Position numbers and translations under genes: made by a program | NCBI GenBank assembly: GCA_965197905.1 | Contig: CBDAOB010000003.1 | Coordinates: 448,001 to 512,000 of the forward strand | Length of the DNA: 64,000 nt | Reading direction: 5' to 3' | From: Candidatus Latescibacterota bacterium | GTDB taxonomy: Bacteria > Latescibacterota > UBA2968 > UBA8231 | Shown here: one piece after another, positions 13,322-25,352 of the stretch | How positions within the stretch are numbered: position 1 is the stretch's first letter | Layout: each line of letters starts with the position of its first letter | The notes under the pieces: generated by a model | What the model saw: the letters and a program-made list of their open reading frames with translations, nothing else | What the model was told of the DNA's origin: nothing | Databases searched by the model: none

Positions 13322-15177
13322 TCACGCGTCGAGAACATCGCGCACGGTGCGCGCCAGATTCGCAAACCTATAGGGCTTTCGCACAATTGCCTGAACGTCG
13401 ACCGTTCGTGATTCGTCGACAGAATATCCAGTGACAAGAACCACCCGTATCTCGGGATCGAGGCCACGGACGATCGGCAGAAACTCGTAGCCAGACATCT
13501 TTGGCATGGAAAGATCGAGTAGGATAAGCGCAATCTCATCGCGGCTTCGCCGGAACACTTCCAAGCCGTCGGTGCCATCCGATCCTTGGAGCACCTTGTA
13601 ACCATAGCTTGTCAACTGCGTAGCTACCGTACTCCGAATAGCGTCTTCGTCGTCGATAACCAATAGTGTTTCGGTGCCACCTGAAACGGCAGATTCGATT
13701 TCGTCATTCGGCACGGAGGCCTCTGCAAGACAGGCAGTCGGCAAGCAAACGGTAAAACGGGTTCCCTTTCCGAGATGACTCTCACATGTTATCCATCCTT
13801 CGTGCTGTTGTATTACCGCGTATGCGGTAGCCAGCCCCAGTCCCGTGCCTTTCCCCATTTCTTTGGTGGTAAAGAACGGCTCGAAGACGCGTTCCTGGAC
13901 CTCGGAGTTCATGCCTATCCCGTTGTCCGAAAATATCGCGCGAAGATACTCTCCGGGGCGCGCTTCGGGATGGGCCTTCACGGCCTCCTCGTGGGAAATT
14001 TCATCCACCGTTATTTCGACCCGGGGGTTGTCACTGTCTGTTTCTTCCAGTGCGTCACGCGCGTTCAGACAGAAGTTAAGGAAGGCTTGTTGCAGCTGAC
14101 TTTCATTTCCCTTGATGGCGAGCGGATGTTCGGGCGGGCTGAAGGCAATTTGATTCTTCGGTCAAACGTCTTTCGACATATGCGGACCGTATCGTCTAGC
14201 AACGTCTGCACATCGATCCGACTGTACTGGTCGGAGCTGGACCTTTGCCCAAATAACATGAGTTGCTCAACCACACCCGCTGCTCTTTCCGCGGCTGACA
14301 TCGCCTCGATCAGACCCGGTCGTTGGGACTCAGATGCATTTTGCAGTGCCAGCTCTATGTCGCCTATTACGATCATGAGCATATTGTTGAAATTATGGGC
14401 AACGCCAGAAGAGAGTTTCCCGATAGCCTCCATTTTTTGGGCCTGGCGTAAACTCTCTTCCAACTGTTGACGTTCGATGGACCGAGCTCGGAGTTGCGCG
14501 ATCATGGCGCTGAAGGCGTCTATAAGCTGGCCGACTTCATCAGTACCTGCCTTTTGAATTTCCTTTTCATAATCCTCCGCCCTTCCTATCTCGCCGATGG
14601 TTTCGACCAGGCGGGAAAGCGGGGTGGTAATGAGTCTGCTCAAGTAGATGGAGAGCAAGACTCCAGACACCAGTATCGCGAAGCTGACGACGAAGCCGGT
14701 TGCACGAATCGACTCAATGGCCCGATCCCTTTCGCGCAATGAGAATCCGACTATCAAATCACTCTCAATAGCCGATATCTGAAGCGGCGATCTCGCATGT
14801 AACCTTCCGACTTTCTCGACAGTATCTCCAGCGCTGAATAAATCGATTGACGGTAAATCTATATCCTGCGGATTGAAAGAGAACGTAGCTTTTCCGTCCT
14901 CTCCAAAGATGGCGATATATAGAATGCTTTCATCTTCCTTTGCTTGTTTGAAAAGCTCATCAATAAACGCGAAATCGCCCTCCTCAAGAGCTAGTGATAC
15001 TCCGGCGGCAAGCATTTGCGTAATACTTTCAGCCCTGTCCGTCATAGCCTGGGTAACCTGCTGCTTCTGTTTCCAGGGGAAATAGCCGAAATTGAGAAAA
15101 ACAGCCAGCAGGAGTACGAGCACGAAGACACTGAGTATCTTTGTGCGGATCGACAAATTTCTGAATAGTTGAATCAA
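13322..15177 (-). CDS. Membrane hybrid histidine kinase (TM-periplasmic-TM-HAMP-HisKA-HATPase-REC), frameshifted at about 14150
   Basis: QAQKMEAIGKLSSGVAHNFNN H-box in ORF 14065-15243. Adding one A at 14149-14151 restores IKIAFS...ESQLQQAFLNFCLNARDA and joins DNGIGM, FEPFFTTK, GTGLGL and the REC domain (IDDE, DLSMP, KP) of ORF 13322-14008. Confidence 0.8.
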
Positions 15178-15178
15178 A

Positions 15179-15685
15179 CTACTTGGCGGGGATTTCCCGC
15201 GATTGGAGAGGATATTTGCTGTCCGAGATCTCTTTGCCGTCAACCTTGATCACCTTGACGGAATCCAAGGAAGGATCGAAGTCAGATATATGGATGAACC
15301 CGATGGCAAAAGGGTTAGTGGCGATGTAATCTAGCATCTTTCTCTCAGAGTCCATACTCACAGGCAAATTCTGAAATTCTCCATTCAGTATCATGCTGAG
15401 CCACTTCATCCGAATTCTTATTGACGATATGCCCGCTACGGTCCGATAGAATTTCTCGGCAACCTCTTTTTTGCCCTTGTAGTCAATCAAATTGATGTGT
15501 CCACTCGTTCCACGCCCAGACACCCACGTTAACCTCTCGCCCAGGAAGATCCGTTTCAACTCAGCCATGCGAAGGGATTCTACCGGGTTCGTGCCGTTCA
15601 CGACTACTGCGATCTGAGCACGAGCGTCTGTGCTGAGCAGAAGGCAGGTCCCCCCGACAAGCAGCAAAGTTCTCGCTATGCTCAT
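15179..15685 (-). CDS. Small secreted protein resembling one lobe of a phosphate-binding (PstS-like) periplasmic binding protein
   Basis: Signal peptide, then IAVVVN..NPVESL...ELKRIFLG..LTW and YIA.NP.AIGFI...VKVIKVDG. Confidence 0.7.
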   Translation of the reverse strand: MSIARTLLLVGGTCLLLSTDARAQIAVVVNGTNPVESLRMAELKRIFLGERLTWVSGRGTSGHINLIDYKGKKEVAEKFYRTVAGISSIRIRMKWLSMILNGEFQNLPVSMDSERKMLDYIATNPFAIGFIHISDFDPSLDSVKVIKVDGKEISDSKYPLQSREIPAK

Positions 15686-16990: not shown

Positions 16991-18682
16991 TCAAACGTAT
17001 CGGCGGATCAGTCCCGCCATCCGATCGTTCCCCCGTTTTTCCACCCACGCAAGAGGCGTCGACCAGGCGGCGCCGGACCGTTCAGGATCGGCGCCGTTCT
17101 CCAGATACAGCTCGGCAAGCTCGTAGCGATCCCAGCGAACCGACCACCCAAGCGGAGTCGACTGCAGAAGATCGTCGAGCACGTTCAGGTCGGCACCATA
17201 CTCGATCAGGATCCGGCCAAAGGCGATTCGGTCACTCTCTAGCATGACCACGTGGCGGCCCCACACCTTTCCCTTCGCTGCGAGGTGATGGGCCAGCCGG
17301 TAACCGTATCTGCCCACCACGTTGGGACTAGCGCCGTGTTCGAGAATCATGCGAAATATCTCGGGATAGACTCTGCGGTCGATGTCCTTGAAATTGCGGT
17401 GCGGGTGCAGGCGCCATAACCGGAGCGGCTGCTCCAACACGTCCATCCAGCGGTTGTCCTCGCTCTCCCAATTCAGCTGGCGCAGACAAAGGCCGGCCAG
17501 ATTGATATCCCCTCCGCAGCCCGCGGCCCTGAGCAGTTTCTCAGCCAGGTCAGGGTCCCTGTGAAGGTACACCGCAGCAGCCGCGGTCTCACCCTCGACC
17601 CCTGCGGAGGTAGGTTCGAGGACGCCACCATACCGATAAAGCAGTCCTTTCATCCGATCATCGCGGTTGTTGTACGCGTAGCCGACAGGGTTGCCGCTGG
17701 CGTACGGTCCCTTGTTCGGGTCCGCGCCGGCTTCGAGGAGAATCTGAGCGATCTCGTATTGCCCTGAGCCCGCCGCCCTTGTCAATGGCTCCCCGCCGCT
17801 CTTGGGCCGATTCTCATACTCGGTAAGTTCGTGCTCGTCATCCGGGTGACAGCCCAGTTCCAACAGTAGCTTGATCATTTCAACGTTGTCGGCCTCGACC
17901 GCCCGTTGGAGCAGCCCGAGTCGTTTGACCCCGTCGTTGAGGAAACGCTCGGGACGGTCTGCCGCCGCCTGCCGGACGTGAGGCATGTCTCCGAGAGCTA
18001 CGGCGGTTTCGAGACTGACATCGCAACCGGCCTGGAGCAGGAGGCCCGTTGCGATCAGACAACCCTCGTTGAGCGGGAGAGCTCGCGGGTGGGCACTCTG
18101 GACCGCGCCGTCCAGGGGCGAAGCGCCCGCGGGCGTGAGATGGCGATAGTCCGCCCCGCGCTCGAGAAGCTGGTGCACCAGGTTGTACAGACCTGCACAA
18201 GCGGCGGCATACAGAACGCTACCACCGTTCCGATGACACGCGTTCAGCAGTTCCGGCTGCGCGTCGAGGAGTCGGAGCGCCTCGACCTCGTCCTTCTCCG
18301 TAACCGCCTCGAAGAGTGCATCGTTTGCGGGGCTGATCTCGATGTTCTCGCAGGCCGCCAACTTTAGTTTTTCGTCCTCGTCACGAATGATTTCGACGAT
18401 GCTGCCGAGCCCCCGTTCCTGCGCTATGGTCAGCGCGCCTGTCGCCTCCCGATGCGGGAAGATCCCTTCGTCGACCTTGGCACCACGCTGAACGAGCAGA
18501 CGAACCGCTTCGTCATGACCATTCATCACGGCGAAGTGAATCGCGCGGTGCACGTTTCTTTCGGCTACCATTACGTTGACCAGGTCGGGCTGCCGATCCA
18601 AAATCAGACCAATGCGCGAGACATCGCCATCGGCCGCCGCATCGCAGAGGTCTGCGATCTTTGTCGGGCCATTTAGTGTCAT
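16991..18682 (-). CDS. Ankyrin-repeat protein
   Basis: Repeats AIHFAVMNGHDEAVRLLVQRGAKVD, LYAAACAG...LLERGAD, PLTRAAGSGQYEIAQILLEAGADPN and TPLGWSVRW. Confidence 0.88.
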   Translation of the reverse strand: MTLNGPTKIADLCDAAADGDVSRIGLILDRQPDLVNVMVAERNVHRAIHFAVMNGHDEAVRLLVQRGAKVDEGIFPHREATGALTIAQERGLGSIVEIIRDEDEKLKLAACENIEISPANDALFEAVTEKDEVEALRLLDAQPELLNACHRNGGSVLYAAACAGLYNLVHQLLERGADYRHLTPAGASPLDGAVQSAHPRALPLNEGCLIATGLLLQAGCDVSLETAVALGDMPHVRQAAADRPERFLNDGVKRLGLLQRAVEADNVEMIKLLLELGCHPDDEHELTEYENRPKSGGEPLTRAAGSGQYEIAQILLEAGADPNKGPYASGNPVGYAYNNRDDRMKGLLYRYGGVLEPTSAGVEGETAAAAVYLHRDPDLAEKLLRAAGCGGDINLAGLCLRQLNWESEDNRWMDVLEQPLRLWRLHPHRNFKDIDRRVYPEIFRMILEHGASPNVVGRYGYRLAHHLAAKGKVWGRHVVMLESDRIAFGRILIEYGADLNVLDDLLQSTPLGWSVRWDRYELAELYLENGADPERSGAAWSTPLAWVEKRGNDRMAGLIRRYV

Positions 18683-18836
18683 TCAGAACCTCGGGAGTCA
18701 AGATCTGTTCGGGGTTGTGGCTATAGTACGAAGATATAAAGGAGGATCCAATACCTCGAGGTCCGTTAACACCGTAGCCGCCCATCTCCCGGCTAGATCC
18801 GATTCTGCAAGCTAAGGGATGAAAGCTGCCTGCCGA

Positions 18837-19754
18837 TCATCCAACTAACAGCTGAGCAATCAGGAGAAGGTGATTTGTCCAGCTCACCTCCGGGTTGGTT
18901 TCGCTCATTTGCGAACATAGACACGATGCGATGTCGATCGTTCCGCAGGCCCGGATTCGCTCTTCGCTGTGGCCGAGTTCCCGGCTGAATATTTGGACTG
19001 GCTGATCCAGCAACCTTTGCTTCTCATCTCGGGATATCTCATCCGGTAACCCGTTATGCAAGAATCGGCCCACCTCCAGACACGGGACACCGACCACCCC
19101 TTTCGGATCTATCGCTAACCACCCGACCTGCTCATCGAGGAGGATCTTCTGATGGTGCAAATCGCCATGCAACAAGACATCCTGCGCTTTCGTGCTCTGG
19201 ATCTCCTTGAACAGATGCGTAGCCGTGTCGATCAACTCCGCCGGAAATGGGGCCCCGTCTCTAGCGCAAATGGGCTTTGACCTGTGAAACCTGCGTTCTA
19301 CTTGCTCCGCATAGATTGGCAGGCAGTGAACCGACGGCACGGCAACCTGAAGATTTTTCATTACGCCGGCCGCCAGGAGCGACTCTTCTGCGTTGTTCCG
19401 GAGTTCGTTCAGCTTGGTTCCCGGTCGAATGCGCTCTAGCAGTAGTGCCCCGAGTTCGGGGTCGCTATCTACGTATCTGACGATCCCGCGTCCCTGGTAG
19501 ATACGCAATGCTTCCATTTCCGTAACGAGATCGTGGTGAGGCACCCCCACTTTGAGCACCAGTTCGTCGCCGGAGTCATTACAGGCGAATGTCAGGTAGT
19601 TAGCCTTGAGATCTTCGACAGCGGGGCCGAGATCCAGCTTCCAGCGGGTTGCCAGTTCTGTCAGGAGCTCCGGTAATTGGACAAGCCAGGCCTTGCCGGC
19701 GCCACCGAATACACGGCAGATCGATTGCTGAAAATATTCGGGGAAGGGTTCCAT
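18837..19754 (-). CDS. Aminoglycoside/hydroxyurea-resistance kinase family (APH(6)-like) protein
   Basis: GKAWL..LPELL...RW, VLKV, ALLLERIRPG, LLHGDLHH and WLAIDPKG motifs. Confidence 0.8.
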   Translation of the reverse strand: MEPFPEYFQQSICRVFGGAGKAWLVQLPELLTELATRWKLDLGPAVEDLKANYLTFACNDSGDELVLKVGVPHHDLVTEMEALRIYQGRGIVRYVDSDPELGALLLERIRPGTKLNELRNNAEESLLAAGVMKNLQVAVPSVHCLPIYAEQVERRFHRSKPICARDGAPFPAELIDTATHLFKEIQSTKAQDVLLHGDLHHQKILLDEQVGWLAIDPKGVVGVPCLEVGRFLHNGLPDEISRDEKQRLLDQPVQIFSRELGHSEERIRACGTIDIASCLCSQMSETNPEVSWTNHLLLIAQLLVG

Positions 19755-19804
19755 CGGTATCTAGCAAGGTGCGCGAGGGGTTGCCGAGGCCTTGGCGCGT
19801 ACCA

Positions 19805-20938
19805 TCACTCAGGTGCACCGACCTGGCGCAGTCTTTCTATCTCGCGAGCCGTTGTCAGTCGAGGAACTGGCAGCTGCTTCGGGTAGAAGTCCGATCGGGC
19901 AAGTGCGTAACCTAGCGGCGTGAATTCGCGAATCCTGCCATCGTGATTCATGCTAGCGCGCACGGTCAAATCAGGCCCCTTAGCAAGGAGACAATCGAAT
20001 GTATCGTAACACGAACCACGAGGCGTGCCAATCGTGTGATAGAGCGGCGTCTGCCCTCCCGATCCGTCTTGTAGCATTTGCGCCTTTGCATTGATGTCAG
20101 CGCCGTGTTGAATAAGAAGCTCCGCACACTTGCTTTCATTGTGCGAAGCCGCGATGTGGAGCAATGTGTACCCCATAACCGTTTTGTCCACTATTTTGTA
20201 ATTGAAGAAGCCAGTAACCAGCGACGGATCACGGACAATTCTGACTTCGAGCGCGTCGTGGCGACCTCGGTGGATGTCCATCACAGGCCCATCCTCACAG
20301 ACAGCTCCAGCTTCAATCAAGGTATTGATACATTCGTGACGTAGGCCGACATCGAAGACCCACGAGGACCCAATCGCCGCCCCCATGACGCCAGCCCTGT
20401 TTGGATCGACGCCGAGTGACAACAATCTCCTGATTTGTGCGAGGTCCAGGTTGTAGGCATTGCACCAAAGCATGTGGCCAAGAAACCGCGAATCCGCTCC
20501 GGCTCTTTTCAGGATCTCCATGCTTCCCAACGAACTTCGCATGTGTGCATACCTGAAGGGCGTAATGAACCTGGGACGTCTCTTGCGGTCAGTCCACTCG
20601 AATTTCGCCTGAACGAGAGCCGGATGTTCACTGAGCAACCTGCTCAACCTGGCGCCGTCATCCCGCTCAATTGCGTCTCTTACGAGGCCCGGCCTATCCT
20701 CCCTCTCCTCGACAGCCTCGACGCACCTTTGCCAGCTGAGAAATCCGTATTCGATGGCGACGACGAGCTGCGCATCTTCAAGCGTGAACTCTGCGCTAAG
20801 AATATCAGCAGTTCCAGATGTCGAAAAACTCGGATGAGACTGCTTGATGCGTGACATGGCTTCCGCTTTAAGGGCATGGTAATCCCTAAGCAACCCGTCG
20901 GCTTGCTTCCGGTGATTCTCAATAGTGGGAGAGCGCAC
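19805..20938 (-). CDS. Ankyrin-repeat protein with a small N-terminal helical domain (RKQA..LL...LEDAQLVVAIEYGFLSW)
   Basis: TLLHIAASHN...LLIQHGADIN, TPLYH and TPLGYA ankyrin motifs plus the distinct N-terminal module. Confidence 0.82.
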   Translation of the reverse strand: MRSPTIENHRKQADGLLRDYHALKAEAMSRIKQSHPSFSTSGTADILSAEFTLEDAQLVVAIEYGFLSWQRCVEAVEEREDRPGLVRDAIERDDGARLSRLLSEHPALVQAKFEWTDRKRRPRFITPFRYAHMRSSLGSMEILKRAGADSRFLGHMLWCNAYNLDLAQIRRLLSLGVDPNRAGVMGAAIGSSWVFDVGLRHECINTLIEAGAVCEDGPVMDIHRGRHDALEVRIVRDPSLVTGFFNYKIVDKTVMGYTLLHIAASHNESKCAELLIQHGADINAKAQMLQDGSGGQTPLYHTIGTPRGSCYDTFDCLLAKGPDLTVRASMNHDGRIREFTPLGYALARSDFYPKQLPVPRLTTAREIERLRQVGAPE

Positions 20939-20967
20939 GGGAATTCGCCTTTTTGCTTACAAATGTT

Positions 20968-21040
20968 TTCGTGCTTCCGTAACCGCCCAACGTTGTCCGC
21001 CTCCAGGAAGATGCAACCGACCTAAAACCTCCACAACGGC
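20968..21040 (-). ncRNA. Putative structured 5' leader (candidate cis-regulatory RNA) of the ankyrin gene
   Basis: Minus strand reads GCCGTTGTGGAGGTTTTAGGTCGGTTGCATCTTCCTGGAGGCGGACAACGTTGGGCGGTTACGGAAGCACGAA. Nested complementarities: TCTTCC/GGCGGA hairpin, GTTG/CAAC, CGTTGT/ACAACG, CCGT/ACGG. Not matched to a named family. Confidence 0.4.
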
Positions 21041-21266
21041 TATGTGTAGTTCTTGGTCGAAGAGCACACAGTATGAGCCCGGCCGATCCCGATAGCCGTT
21101 CCCCTCAAGTGCCTGGCCGAATATCTGCATTCAGTTGACCGCGGGGCGCATCGGTCCAGGTGGACACGCGTATCGCTGACTCTGGATCTCGGTACCAGGG
21201 ATCCTGCTGCCGGATAGTGGGTATATTGAATTCCAATTGAAACCTCTGTTTATATGCGATGCGTGA

Positions 21267-22151
21267 TCAGCTGTCTTTTCCCGCTTTCGAGGAACCCCCA
21301 GGATAAGAACTCGATGGCCGCGGATTGCGCTGCTCGAAAAGGTCTTCATAACGCATGCGGACCCTCCCTTCCAGCTCCGGATGCGGCCGAATCCAGAACC
21401 TCCCGTCAATGATGGCAGCAAAAACATGATCCGCCAGCTCTTTGGGAGACATGCCCACCCGGATCGCTCGACGAAAAGCCTCGACCGTCGCATCATCCGC
21501 GCCAATCGCATCGTCTTGTTCAGATTCATCTCTCAATGCCGACGGACGATTTCGTGCTGAATCCATAATTTCGGTGTTCACAAAACTTGGACACAAGACA
21601 GAGACTCCTATCTGTGCGTGTCGCTGCGACAACTCATGGTAGAGCTGCTCCGAGAGTGCGATGACGGCATGTTTGGTCATTCCGTAACTTGCGGAGGGAT
21701 GAGGAGAAATCAGTCCTGCAATAGAAGCCGTGTTCACGATATGACACTCGGTATTCTGCTCAAGCATAATCGGAACAAACGTCCGCAAGCCATGAATGAT
21801 GCCCCAAAGGTTCACCCCCATCGCCCATTTCCAATCATTCAGGGTACTTTCCCAGATAGAACCATCGGTACGGACACCAGCGTTGTTGCAGAGCAGGTGT
21901 ACTGCCCCGAAATAATCAATCGACCTCTCGGCCAGTCGCTCGACATCCACGGGATCGGACACATCAGTCGGTATCGACCGGACATCTGCTCCCATTGCTT
22001 CCATTGCTGATCTGGTTTTAGACAGGGCTTCTCGCTCGATGTCGGCAAGAACAACCTTCATACCCTCGGCTATACAACGCTCAGCCATCCCGCACCCGAT
22101 TCCGCTGGCTGCTCCGGTGATGACAGCTACCTTACCTTTGAGATTCTTCAT
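21267..22151 (-). CDS. SDR family oxidoreductase
   Basis: TGAASGIG, NNAGV, NTASIAG and YGMTK motifs. Start trimmed to MKNLKGK. Confidence 0.9.
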   Translation of the reverse strand: MKNLKGKVAVITGAASGIGCGMAERCIAEGMKVVLADIEREALSKTRSAMEAMGADVRSIPTDVSDPVDVERLAERSIDYFGAVHLLCNNAGVRTDGSIWESTLNDWKWAMGVNLWGIIHGLRTFVPIMLEQNTECHIVNTASIAGLISPHPSASYGMTKHAVIALSEQLYHELSQRHAQIGVSVLCPSFVNTEIMDSARNRPSALRDESEQDDAIGADDATVEAFRRAIRVGMSPKELADHVFAAIIDGRFWIRPHPELEGRVRMRYEDLFEQRNPRPSSSYPGGSSKAGKDS

Positions 22152-22162
22152 CCGTGAAAATG

Positions 22163-22309
22163 CTACGACTTGACCGCTTCGATGATGCACACGGGCGATT
22201 GTGTCGGTAGGATGCGGGACAGCTTCAGATCCGCCTTTGCTAACAGCGCTTCAAACTCTTCCTCGGTTCGTTGGCGATCTCCAGTAGTGGCGGGAGGATT
22301 GGCATGCAT
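22163..22309 (-). pseudogene. C-terminal remnant of a SAM-dependent O-methyltransferase
   Basis: Manual translation MHANPPATTGDRQRTEEEFEALLAKADLKLSRILPTQSPVCIIEAVKS* matches the G.ERT.EEF..LL..AG..L.RI.PT..P..IIEA tail of class I O-methyltransferases. No SAM-binding domain upstream. Confidence 0.65.
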
Positions 22310-22402
22310 ATAGTGCTCTCCCTCAAAGTTGATTCAAAGGGAAGTTTCTAAACTGCATCAATGCCACAAGGCGGGCAATATCAATGTTTAGCGACGAACA
22401 TC

Positions 22403-25214
22403 TCACAGCTTCTTGACCAAGTATCGATATAGCTCCTCGTCATGATGGGAATTTCCATCGGGATCCGCATAGGTGTATCCGGAGAGAAATTCGCCGTATC
22501 CACTATCTTCAAACCCCAATGTCTCGTAGAGTACGCGGGCGGCCTTCTGCTTTGGACTATGCGATGTTACCCGAAGCCCGACGAGACTGATGCCTCTTGC
22601 TCGGACAAGGGCTTCGGCCACTTCCATTAGCTGGCGACCAATCCCCCGACCACGGGCAATCTCCGTAACTCTGAGGTCGCCGACTTCCGCGCAATGTAAC
22701 TCCTCAGCCATGTTTGTACGCTGGCACTTTCCCCCCGGCCAGCTTACAAATACGTACCCAACGGGCTCGGTATCGTCCCACGCTGCTAGGCAAGTAACCT
22801 CACCTGCCTGCTGACCTTCAAATCTTTCGACGTGACGATTGATTGGCGCACCCGCCTCCTCCGGATATGTTGCCACCAAATATCGCACGTCCCTTCCACA
22901 TGAAATCTTTTGCAACTCTGTAACGTGCTCTGCAAATCCAATGAACTGATCGTCCGCTCTCAATTCGGCAGCTCGGTTTTCGATACCAAGCATGTTTCCA
23001 GATGTAGCAAGGTCCAGAAACACCGCCAGTTCGGACGCCGGCGGCGCTACTACTACCCGATCAGCTTCTCCCAATGCTTGAGACTGCGGCTCGGCATATT
23101 CCGAGGTTAGTTGCAATCGCTCTGCGAGGAGTCTCGTCAGGTGGTCTTGTCGAACGGGTATTGCAACAAACTCGTCCGCGCCTGCATCCGCGCTCTCTTT
23201 CCTGTCAGCCTCGAAGGCACTGGCAGTAACAGCCACTAAGACAACCTGGCTTCCCCCAGGTTTCGATTTAATCTCCTTCATCGCGTCATTGCCGTCCATC
23301 ACTGGCATTCGCAAATCCATAAACACAAGGTCAGGATGCCATGTCAGCGTCTTGTCCACGGCGGCGCGCCCGTCCTCAACCTCTTCCACCAGAAATCCCA
23401 GGGGGATCAGCATGTCTACGAGCACCCTGCGATTCTCCTCTTGATCGTCTGCTACCAAGACTTTCCGCGGGTCGCCTTGATAACCGGTAATCTGCTTTGC
23501 CTCCTGAGCAACAGAAGGCGTGTAGTTTGGGAGTTCCTCGACCTCGAGCTCGAACCAGAAGCTGCTGCCCTTTGACAACTCGCTTTGAACCTGCAATTCG
23601 CCTCCCATCAACTCGACCAGGCGGGCACTGATCGGCAGTCCCAGACCTGTCCCCTCTATGGCATCGCTTTGAGCGCCCACTTGCTTGAAACCTTCAAAAA
23701 TCGCCCCAAGCGACTCTTTGGCAATACCGATGCCAGTGTCATCCACTTGAAATCGCAGACGTTTGCCTCCGGACTGGCTGATTCTGAGACTAACATTCCC
23801 ATGTTTGGTGAATTTGATCGCATTGCCAAGTAGATTGGTCAGGATCTGCCGGAGTTTCTTTTCATCCATGCAGACACCCACCGGCACGTCGGTAAATTCG
23901 CAGCTGAACGAGAGACCCCGCTGCTGAGCGCGGATCTTGAAAACGGTTTCTAGATTCTCGATAAGCTCTCGCAAAGAGAATTCGTTCTTCTCGAGCTCCA
24001 TTCGACCGGCTTCCACCTTGGCCATGTCGAGAATGTCGTTGATCAATGAAAGGAGATGCTCACCACTCCGGCGTATTACCTCGACACCCTCATGCTGCTG
24101 CTGGTTCAAGGAGCGATCTCTGCCCAAAATCTGTGCGTAACCGAAGATTCCGTTTAGCGGTGTGCGAAGTTCGTGGCTCATATTGGCCAGAAATGTACTC
24201 TTGGCGCGACTGGCAGCTTCCGCATCTTCTTTGGCTCGACGCAGCTCGGTCTCCGTTCGCCGCTGCACGGAGATACTGTCGTGCAGAGCCCGCTCGGTGC
24301 GTTCGTGTTCGGCGATCTCCCTGGAGAGTTTGCGGTTCGAATGGAATATAGAGGCCGCCACCAGCGCGATTACGAGGAACGGGACACCAGCCCACAGGCC
24401 CACCATTTTCCAGTCGGTTTGACGTTCTACACGCAGATTTACCCATTTCTCCTTTATCAGCTTCTTCTCCTGCTCCGTAAAGCGGGCGAGGGTTTTGTTC
24501 AGAATGGGTACCAACGGCGCCAGGTCCTTGCGGACGCCTATCGATATATCGATATCGTACGGCGTGAGCGCCGCTACTCGCAGATTGGTCAAGCCGAGTT
24601 TTCTCTCGAAGAACTCGATTACCGCCAATTCGCCAACGGTTGCGTCGGCGTCCCCCTTGGCGACTACAAGCATTGCTTCATCCATCCGGTCTACCAGCAT
24701 CAGCTCCAATTCAGGATGGTCGCGTTCGATCCAATACTGCGTGACGTATCCTTTAACAATGGCGACCGATTTTCCTTTGAAATCCCCCAATCCTTCAACG
24801 TGCGGGAAGTCCTTGCGGGAGACGATGACGGTGGGTAACCGCAAATACGGTTCGGTAAAGCTCAGATACTCCGACCGCTTCTGTGTTCATGATGGCTGTG
24901 ATGACATCGATATCGCCACTCCGGGCTCTATTCAGAATCGCATCCCAGGTAAGGCCGTACACCGCCGCCATCTCCAGGTTCAACTGCTCATTGAGAATGC
25001 GGACATAATCCGAGGTTATGCCGGCGTGCTTCTTCTCATCGTCAAAAAATTCAAAGGGTGCCCAGGCCGGCGCAACGCCCACACGAAGGCTGCGATGCGC
25101 TATCAGCCATTTGCGCTCCTCCGGCGTACGCTCGTCCGCCCAAACGTGGAAAACTCCCATCAACACAGCCAACACGGCGATGGGGAATGGGGCGATCGTG
25201 TGGCAGTCCTTCAT
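22403..25214 (-). pseudogene. Hybrid histidine kinase (periplasmic binding domain-TM-HisKA-HATPase-REC), frameshifted at about 24880 and fused in frame to a GNAT acetyltransferase
   Basis: ORF 24795-25256 has WAPFEF...GITSDY. A frame change restores ...RSEYLSFTEPYLRLPTVIV. Then [26 protein letters not shown] and REC (ADD, MDLRMP). The C-terminus has the GNAT motif LRVTEIARGRGIGRQL...LYETLGF. Confidence 0.7.
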
Positions 25215-25352
25215 ACCGATTTTGTCCCAGATTTGTGGCAATCGAAACGCATCCACCTCAGAGTCTCCGTACTAAGAAAGTATTATGCCATTCCCAAAAC
25301 AAGATCTATCACCTAATATTCGCTGGAGTTTACGTCCCATTTTCCTGATGGA

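Follow-up and report, generated by a model that had tools for sequence, protein, structure and literature searches.

A conserved kissing-loop leader upstream of genes sharing an N-terminal module, and a decayed former member of the family in a Latescibacterota genome

We analyzed a stretch of 64,000 nucleotides from a contig of a Candidatus Latescibacterota bacterium (hereafter the window), in which an ankyrin gene had been described as following a structured leader RNA that its own N-terminal domain might bind. The segment taken for the leader is almost certainly the scar of a deletion in a NUDIX hydrolase gene, and the ankyrin gene has, with equal confidence, lost the family leader and its original start. 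The N-terminal domain (hereafter the module) belongs to a large family, whose genes normally carry, in all likelihood, a conserved 5′ UTR of about 125 nt with kissing loops and a buried Shine-Dalgarno (SD) sequence. The window ankyrin gene is a decayed ex-member of this module-leader family. The proposed pairing of leader and module stood for the family, with its tight coupling and its covarying, Rfam-negative leader, and fell for the flagged segment, since the family leader is a different RNA that has been lost here.

Part of the preliminary description was confirmed directly. The bases quoted there lie on the minus strand at 20952-21024, upstream of an ankyrin-repeat gene encoding 377 aa from a GTG (19805-20938, minus strand). 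Its protein begins with the RKQA..LL / DAQ..VA.EYGF.SW module, and the neighboring ankyrin gene (16991-18682, minus strand) has neither module nor leader. The properties attributed to the segment itself did not survive. Described as GC-rich, 20960-21025 (minus strand) has 53% GC, compared with 58% for the genome; described as holding nested pairings, it has an MFE of -10.9 kcal/mol and a folding z of +1.5, with 485 of 500 dinucleotide shuffles folding at least as well. For 20940-21040, z was +1.1 and 175 of 200 shuffles were at least as good. A folded RNA at this position was consequently ruled out, as the shuffled sequences fold better. A motif that the preliminary description places before module genes in other bacteria was searched with exact patterns, which bear on its exact form only, a looser class being possible; it occurred at two loci in metagenome contigs (one sequence, found twice, with no module) and, within a single phylum (401 genomes), at seven positions, each of which lies on a long open frame and has no module beside it.

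When 61 related genomes were searched at the DNA level, the flagged region was matched in one of them, G002, in three separated pieces. At the same place upstream, G002 carries an intact NUDIX gene of 143 codons (PF00293, E 5e-14, 142 codons searched), some of whose codons are orthologous to the flagged segment. The window retains a remnant of 57 codons (20957-21130, minus strand), the first 45 and the last 12, from which an in-frame deletion has removed 258 nt (86 codons, including the Nudix box); a Pfam search of the remnant gave no match. The deletion junction (20996/20995, minus strand) falls midway in the supposed RNA, and the GCGGAC hexamer seen there spans it. On the evidence of the folding, of the G002 alignment and of the negative search with the family covariance model R1 (see below), the supposed leader at 20960-21025 is a coding remnant lying across this junction and no RNA element. 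Conservation was at the amino-acid level instead of at the level of RNA structure, an outcome that the preliminary description had named as refuting its proposal: relative to G002, 12 codons differ, 8 of them synonymously, and third positions account for 9 of the 14 base changes. Further downstream, the NUDIX stop and a fixed codon pair (IE) are 177 nt apart in G002 and 33 nt apart in the window, which, together with a loose contig end at 20953, places a second junction with a net loss of 144 nt within 20924-20956 (minus strand). With this second deletion the ankyrin gene evidently lost its original start, its SD and a 3′ leader hairpin that was already degenerate.

Public contigs from four runs of three studies contain several alleles of the locus. 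The deleted allele is bridged by contigs in runs X1 (possibly the source data), X2 (with 13 other letters) and X8. Loose ends of the intact allele were found at 20996 and 20999 in X1 and X2, in addition to the one at 20953, and a third allele, in X5, has 22 more bases at junction 20995, the center of the supposed structure. Because these contigs show the deleted allele, the intact loose ends and the third allele, the deletions are genuine, and there is no conservation of the segment as RNA. An assembly artefact, considered as another source of the deletions, was ruled out by the bridging contigs in X1, X2 and X8 and by the variant allele in X5. Run X5 also has 286 additional bases at window position 21130-21131, just upstream of the NUDIX start, and so further indel alleles exist in the region.

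The RNA that does accompany the module was found in the upstream regions of the best ~90 of ~145 module matches by E-value, where a motif of about 125 nt recurs. It begins with hairpin P1, which has a G-rich loop, continues with a short P2 that displays GUCCGC, with P3 and with a strand complementary to the P1 loop, and then passes through a variable linker to a 3′ hairpin. The loop of this hairpin presents GCGGAC, and at its base a U/C-rich anti-SD strand pairs with the SD. The two loops, GUCCGC and GCGGAC, form a kissing helix, which with the P1-loop pairing gives the leader two pseudoknots.

The structure was assessed in a MAFFT alignment of 78 leaders (from 145, dereplicated) that was not fitted to it. 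The kissing helix is paired in 99.8% of cases, with four of its six pairs changed on both sides; P3 reaches 97.4%, the 3′ hairpin 96.7%, the first pseudoknot 89.7% and P2 80.4%. P1, whose register shifts among the 78 leaders, is paired at 49-56% by column, and a P1 hairpin of at least 4 bp is present in 75 of them (70% of shuffles), or of at least 5 bp in 59 (32% of shuffles). The structure totals were reached by none of 500 shuffles, a control that ignores kinship, and slid controls gave 37-47%; RNAalifold recovered P3 and the 3′ hairpin without guidance. Some of the changes keep G-U pairs, which points to RNA as the conserved entity. A covarying upstream motif among module homologues, as the preliminary description had anticipated, is therefore present. 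The P1 loop was also considered as a "dual anti-SD" switch. As this loop covaries with the strand after P3 (three of three pairs changed on both sides), we read the pairing as a fixed pseudoknot and regard a switch as the less likely alternative. Computed positions and folds place the RNA in the 5′ UTR and over the SD: a -10-like hexamer lies just upstream of the leader (119 loci; 96 occurrences at six offsets, 19 at the remaining 59), and every one of the 78 leader folds has the SD paired (median 0.99), compared with 63 of 78 (median 0.61) in a lenient control.

This leader is real and is uncatalogued in the sources checked, namely Rfam 15 and the literature searched. At the gathering threshold, Rfam 15 gave no matches in the whole window, a scan proposed in the preliminary description, and none in 17 leader loci; at E up to 1, ten leader loci returned a group II intron piece and one chance match, neither of them on the leader. 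Our literature search found no description of it, unnamed candidates in some survey supplements falling outside its coverage. Solibacter-1 and Soil-1 are reportedly multi-copy motifs of soil bacteria from a comparable screen. As candidates for the family leader they were rejected, since the alignment rows in the part of PMC2864571 consulted are unlike it, and six leader 13-mers were absent from eight supplement files of that paper. One supplement file of PMC8632094 likewise contained no description of the leader.

The module profile, built from three sequences, retrieved 6430 clusters at 50% identity, and the module occurs in 28 of the 61 related genomes, in up to 18 copies per genome. Almost all of the 150 best matches have it at the N-terminus, as do 94 of 102 domains in a second set. 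For the module of the intact paralogue, AlphaFold2 predicted a compact arrangement of five helices (pLDDT 89.5). A Foldseek search gave no match at E 0.001 or better, and the best VIA Z was 3.8, which is not proof of a new fold. A sequence search of the PDB returned only matches at E 0.8 or worse, and an Atlas search yielded three unnamed clusters at 0.83-0.85, to be taken as leads only. Matches to OST-HTH in 3 of 67 module proteins were weak (E 0.03 or weaker). Glyoxalase_8 (PF20066) was matched weakly by 16 of 67 module proteins (best E 0.0025) and the PRK05973 family (NF004629) by 3 of 67 (best E 0.0002), which offers a lead to possible distant kinship only; five genomes examined for each provided no usable gene for leader inspection. 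The domains carried behind the module vary widely: among 77 module proteins, nearly all leader-linked, we counted ankyrin repeats (33), FliG_C (9), sigma-54 activator (5), FliM (3), bifunctional nuclease (2), APH (2) and single others, with TPR, methyltransferase and kinase among the types.

To what extent RNA and module occur together can be read from either side. A search that started from the RNA, with a pattern for the 5′ half of the leader alone, found at least 120 loci, which among the matches listed span Verrucomicrobia, Acidobacteria, Actinomycetes, Burkholderiales, Planctomycetes, Armatimonadota and others. Again among the matches listed, a module lies within 400 nt of the leader at 118 of 120 loci and GCGGAC within 130 nt at 116. 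Starting from the protein, 94 first modules have a full leader adjacent in 67 cases, a partial one in 4, one further upstream in 7 and none in 16. Per genome (n = 61), the RNA model was found in 27, the module in 28 and both in 26, the model being partly built from the same genomes. Of 25 RNA matches examined for want of a clearly adjacent module, many lie in front of module starts that are frameshifted or shortened, and a few stand before other ORFs; leaders before module-less ORFs were seen at loci L265, L268 and L277. Much of this coupling can be put down to linkage alone, given that leader and module are neighbors on the DNA. Two variants of the arrangement were also noted. A leader subfamily (L277:106-528, L268:71-217, L065, L067, L071, L076 and L081) precedes a stand-alone gene for a 96-aa FliG_C-like protein, and the gene after it usually carries two tandem modules; L268 and L277 have a doubly changed kiss, GCUCGC/GCGAGC. 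At L272 and L273 (genome G028), the leader 5′ domain stands directly before the start codon and the 3′ hairpin is missing.

Against this background, the window gene can be placed. Its protein, 70% identical to the G015 orthologue, has its best-scoring ankyrin repeats at residues 249-327 (19958-20194, minus strand; Pfam Ank_2, E 1e-8). At the N-terminus, the module profile identifies a degenerate copy of the unnamed, ~80-residue five-helix module (20699-20938, minus strand), in which the consensus L-K-K-Q-A-K reads H-R-K-Q-A-D; a Pfam search of the first 80 residues gave no family. Compared with orthologues that have the original start (P0004 and P0005, 383 aa), the N-terminus is about six residues short, and this short start is common to the database proteins P0001 and P0002. 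Covariance model R1 scored 98.5 and 89.8 bits at the two paralogues of the window genome; the orthologue in G015 reached 23.4 and that in G002 9.5, and a search of the window at E up to 10 gave no match. Within 20940-21130, the GUCCGC-loop 5′ domain, P3, the anti-SD strand and a strong SD are all absent, whether removed or never present.

Damage is also apparent in the relatives of this gene. An ankyrin paralogue with an intact leader in the window genome (G000:C3:919048-919187; L002:4049-4188) is broken after ~390 codons, and the break holds a group II intron piece (RF02003, 106.8 bits). A second paralogue, with a module and a sigma-54 activator domain (L001, G000:C3:336046-336600), ends after ~185 codons in the middle of the activator domain; all three module genes of this genome thus look damaged. 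The G002 orthologue of the window gene (L004, G002:C1, ~2369750 and below) is split after ~88 codons by unrelated sequence, which we read as a candidate insertion element.

The neighboring ankyrin gene at 16991-18682 gives a second case of loss. Its protein is 31-37% identical (E down to 2e-65) to ankyrin proteins that have both module and leader elsewhere, and the alignments begin at its residue 7-15, opposite the residues directly C-terminal to the module in these homologues; R1 found no match at this gene. Because it is homologous to module-plus-leader proteins and starts where their module ends, we conclude that it lost both.

We then asked how modules change where the leader is missing. 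Two basic positions in helix 1 are both kept in 64 of 67 leader-adjacent modules and in 9 of 15 leaderless ones (Fisher p 0.0009), a contrast to be read with the knowledge that these two columns were picked after viewing 36 module columns and that kin are not independent. A per-column test over the 36 columns gave none significant after correction (best p ~0.02). An acidic residue at the second position was found in none of 67 leader-adjacent and in 3 of 15 leaderless modules; at four core positions, leaderless modules are intact throughout (14 of 14). Second modules of tandem pairs keep both basic positions in one of eight cases and retain the core, and the RNA-first set has both in 94 of 97 parsed modules (of 120 loci, among the matches listed). 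Along the orthologue series, the lysine of QAK is K in G015 (23 bits), T in G002 (9.5 bits) and D in the window, which has no R1 match. Rates of change were mixed. The ratio of dN in the module to that in the rest of the protein was 0.19-1.35 in 19 intact pairs; of seven informative leader-loss pairs, three lay above this range (1.45, 2.14 and 2.41) and four did not (0.59-0.94), the pairs being hand-picked and two further ones having too few codons. Taken together, these sequences suggest that lineages losing the leader tend to lose the two basic helix-1 residues or the whole module. Such co-decay supports, indirectly and without proving it, binding of the leader by the module.

We hypothesize, with somewhat better than even confidence, that the module is an RNA-binding domain that acts on its own leader. 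The basic face of helix 1 would contact the kissed leader fold and clamp it, so that the SD would stay buried and the protein would repress its own translation, whatever the cargo; leader and module together would form a portable negative-feedback cassette on unrelated cargo domains. In the window gene, where the leader is gone and the helix-1 lysine has become aspartate, expression presumably occurs through upstream read-through. The retention of both basic residues in 9 of 15 leaderless modules speaks against this model, as does the module having no clear match to solved folds. Leaders in front of module-less ORFs, the four loss pairs whose modules change no faster and the low by-column pairing of P1 weigh on the same side. 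The kissing fold itself could serve a different master, since two-domain kissing folds are typical of small-molecule riboswitches: a ligand or ion would stabilize the kiss and bury the SD, and the module would hitchhike or do another job. The two domains with their variable linker, the near-invariant unpaired adenosines and invariant kiss positions, the start of the RNA right after the -10-like hexamer and the paired SD in 78 of 78 folds would all suit a riboswitch. We nevertheless consider it unlikely, as the cargo domains (ankyrin, FliG_C, sigma-54 activator, FliM, nuclease, kinase, TPR and methyltransferase) share no common pathway, the constant partner is the module, and its basic residues decay where the leader is lost.

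Adjacency, the frequent broken copies behind intact leaders and the four of seven loss pairs with no faster module change could also mean that promoter, leader and first 80 codons simply move as a DNA block, with the RNA as a constitutive or temperature-sensitive translation brake and the module as a protein-interaction domain. This is still less likely in our judgment: the neighboring ankyrin gene lost the module exactly and kept its cargo, second tandem modules keep the core and lose the basic pair in all but one of eight cases, and a two-pseudoknot fold conserved across phyla exceeds the needs of a plain brake. The N-terminal position of the module would fit action in cis as a nascent peptide that feeds back on the leader fold from the translating ribosome, which is very improbable given a predicted compact five-helix domain too large for the exit tunnel and seven cases in which the module sits in a later gene of the unit. 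That GTCCGC and GCGGAC are reverse complements, and that the module is small, helical and basic, might suggest inverted operator half-sites in DNA for a module dimer; the spacing of the hexamers varies by tens of bases, each lies in the loop of a covarying stem, and G-U-keeping changes occur, which leaves this reading with slighter credit again. Least credible of all is that the segment at 20960-21025 serves as a conserved leader in its own right, or that the NUDIX scar has been recruited as a new one. The deleted allele is genuine, occurs in contigs of more than one study and has a GCGGAC hexamer across its junction, but the segment folds worse than shuffles, changes as coding sequence, varies in length between alleles, has no R1 match and belongs to no family that we found.

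Returning to self-binding by the module, a broader form of the hypothesis, toward which we are slightly more doubtful than convinced, is that an RNA-binding fold and a double-pseudoknot leader, both undescribed, make up a portable, self-contained feedback cassette on thousands of unrelated proteins in many phyla. Cargo would tune how much free module is able to clamp the RNA, and the window would be a natural knockout in which both halves are decaying together.

Cobalamin and ZTP riboswitches use a regulatory kissing loop or long-range pseudoknot. Like them, the family leader bridges a variable linker by a loop-loop helix that connects its 5′ domain to a 3′ hairpin close to the SD; it differs in having no Rfam match (E up to 1, ten loci), and its downstream genes share a domain and not a pathway. 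Ribosomal-protein leaders are autogenous translational leaders, and those of S15 and L20 have pseudoknots. By analogy, the module-family leader would work most like autogenous leaders. The part of PMC11109978 consulted defines "protein-binding candidates", leaders of the autogenous type, with which the family leader shares a structured 5′ UTR that extends over the ribosome-binding site, the gene immediately behind it encoding a putative nucleic-acid-binding domain. In contrast to autogenous leaders, it has no Rfam match, and its partner, whose binding is putative, is a portable N-terminal module with many cargos and up to 18 copies per genome.

For the window, these results mean that the flagged element is to be dropped, which spares the probing of a pseudogene scar. 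What stands behind it is a widespread, highly structured leader, absent from Rfam 15 and from the literature searched, and a partner domain with no Pfam family or clear solved fold. The window locus adds loss-of-function evidence and names the helix-1 residues to mutate, and the binding hypothesis is directly testable; if true, the pair would be a compact autoregulatory part for synthetic biology and a new mode of RNA-protein recognition.

The ankyrin gene lies between a gene for an APH_6_hur-family kinase (18837-19754, minus strand; E 1e-24) and, beyond the NUDIX remnant, a short-chain dehydrogenase gene (21267-22190, minus strand), whose 3′ end is also found upstream of the NUDIX gene in G002. 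A promoter scan over 18600-22400 gave results at chance level. Two further genes in the window appear interrupted. At 22403-25256 (minus strand), what we take to be a hybrid sensor kinase is, as read from the translations, apparently split into two ORFs, its C-terminus running into presumably GNAT-like sequence, and a sensor histidine kinase/receiver gene at 13322-15243 (minus strand) is apparently split by a frameshift near 14010-14065.
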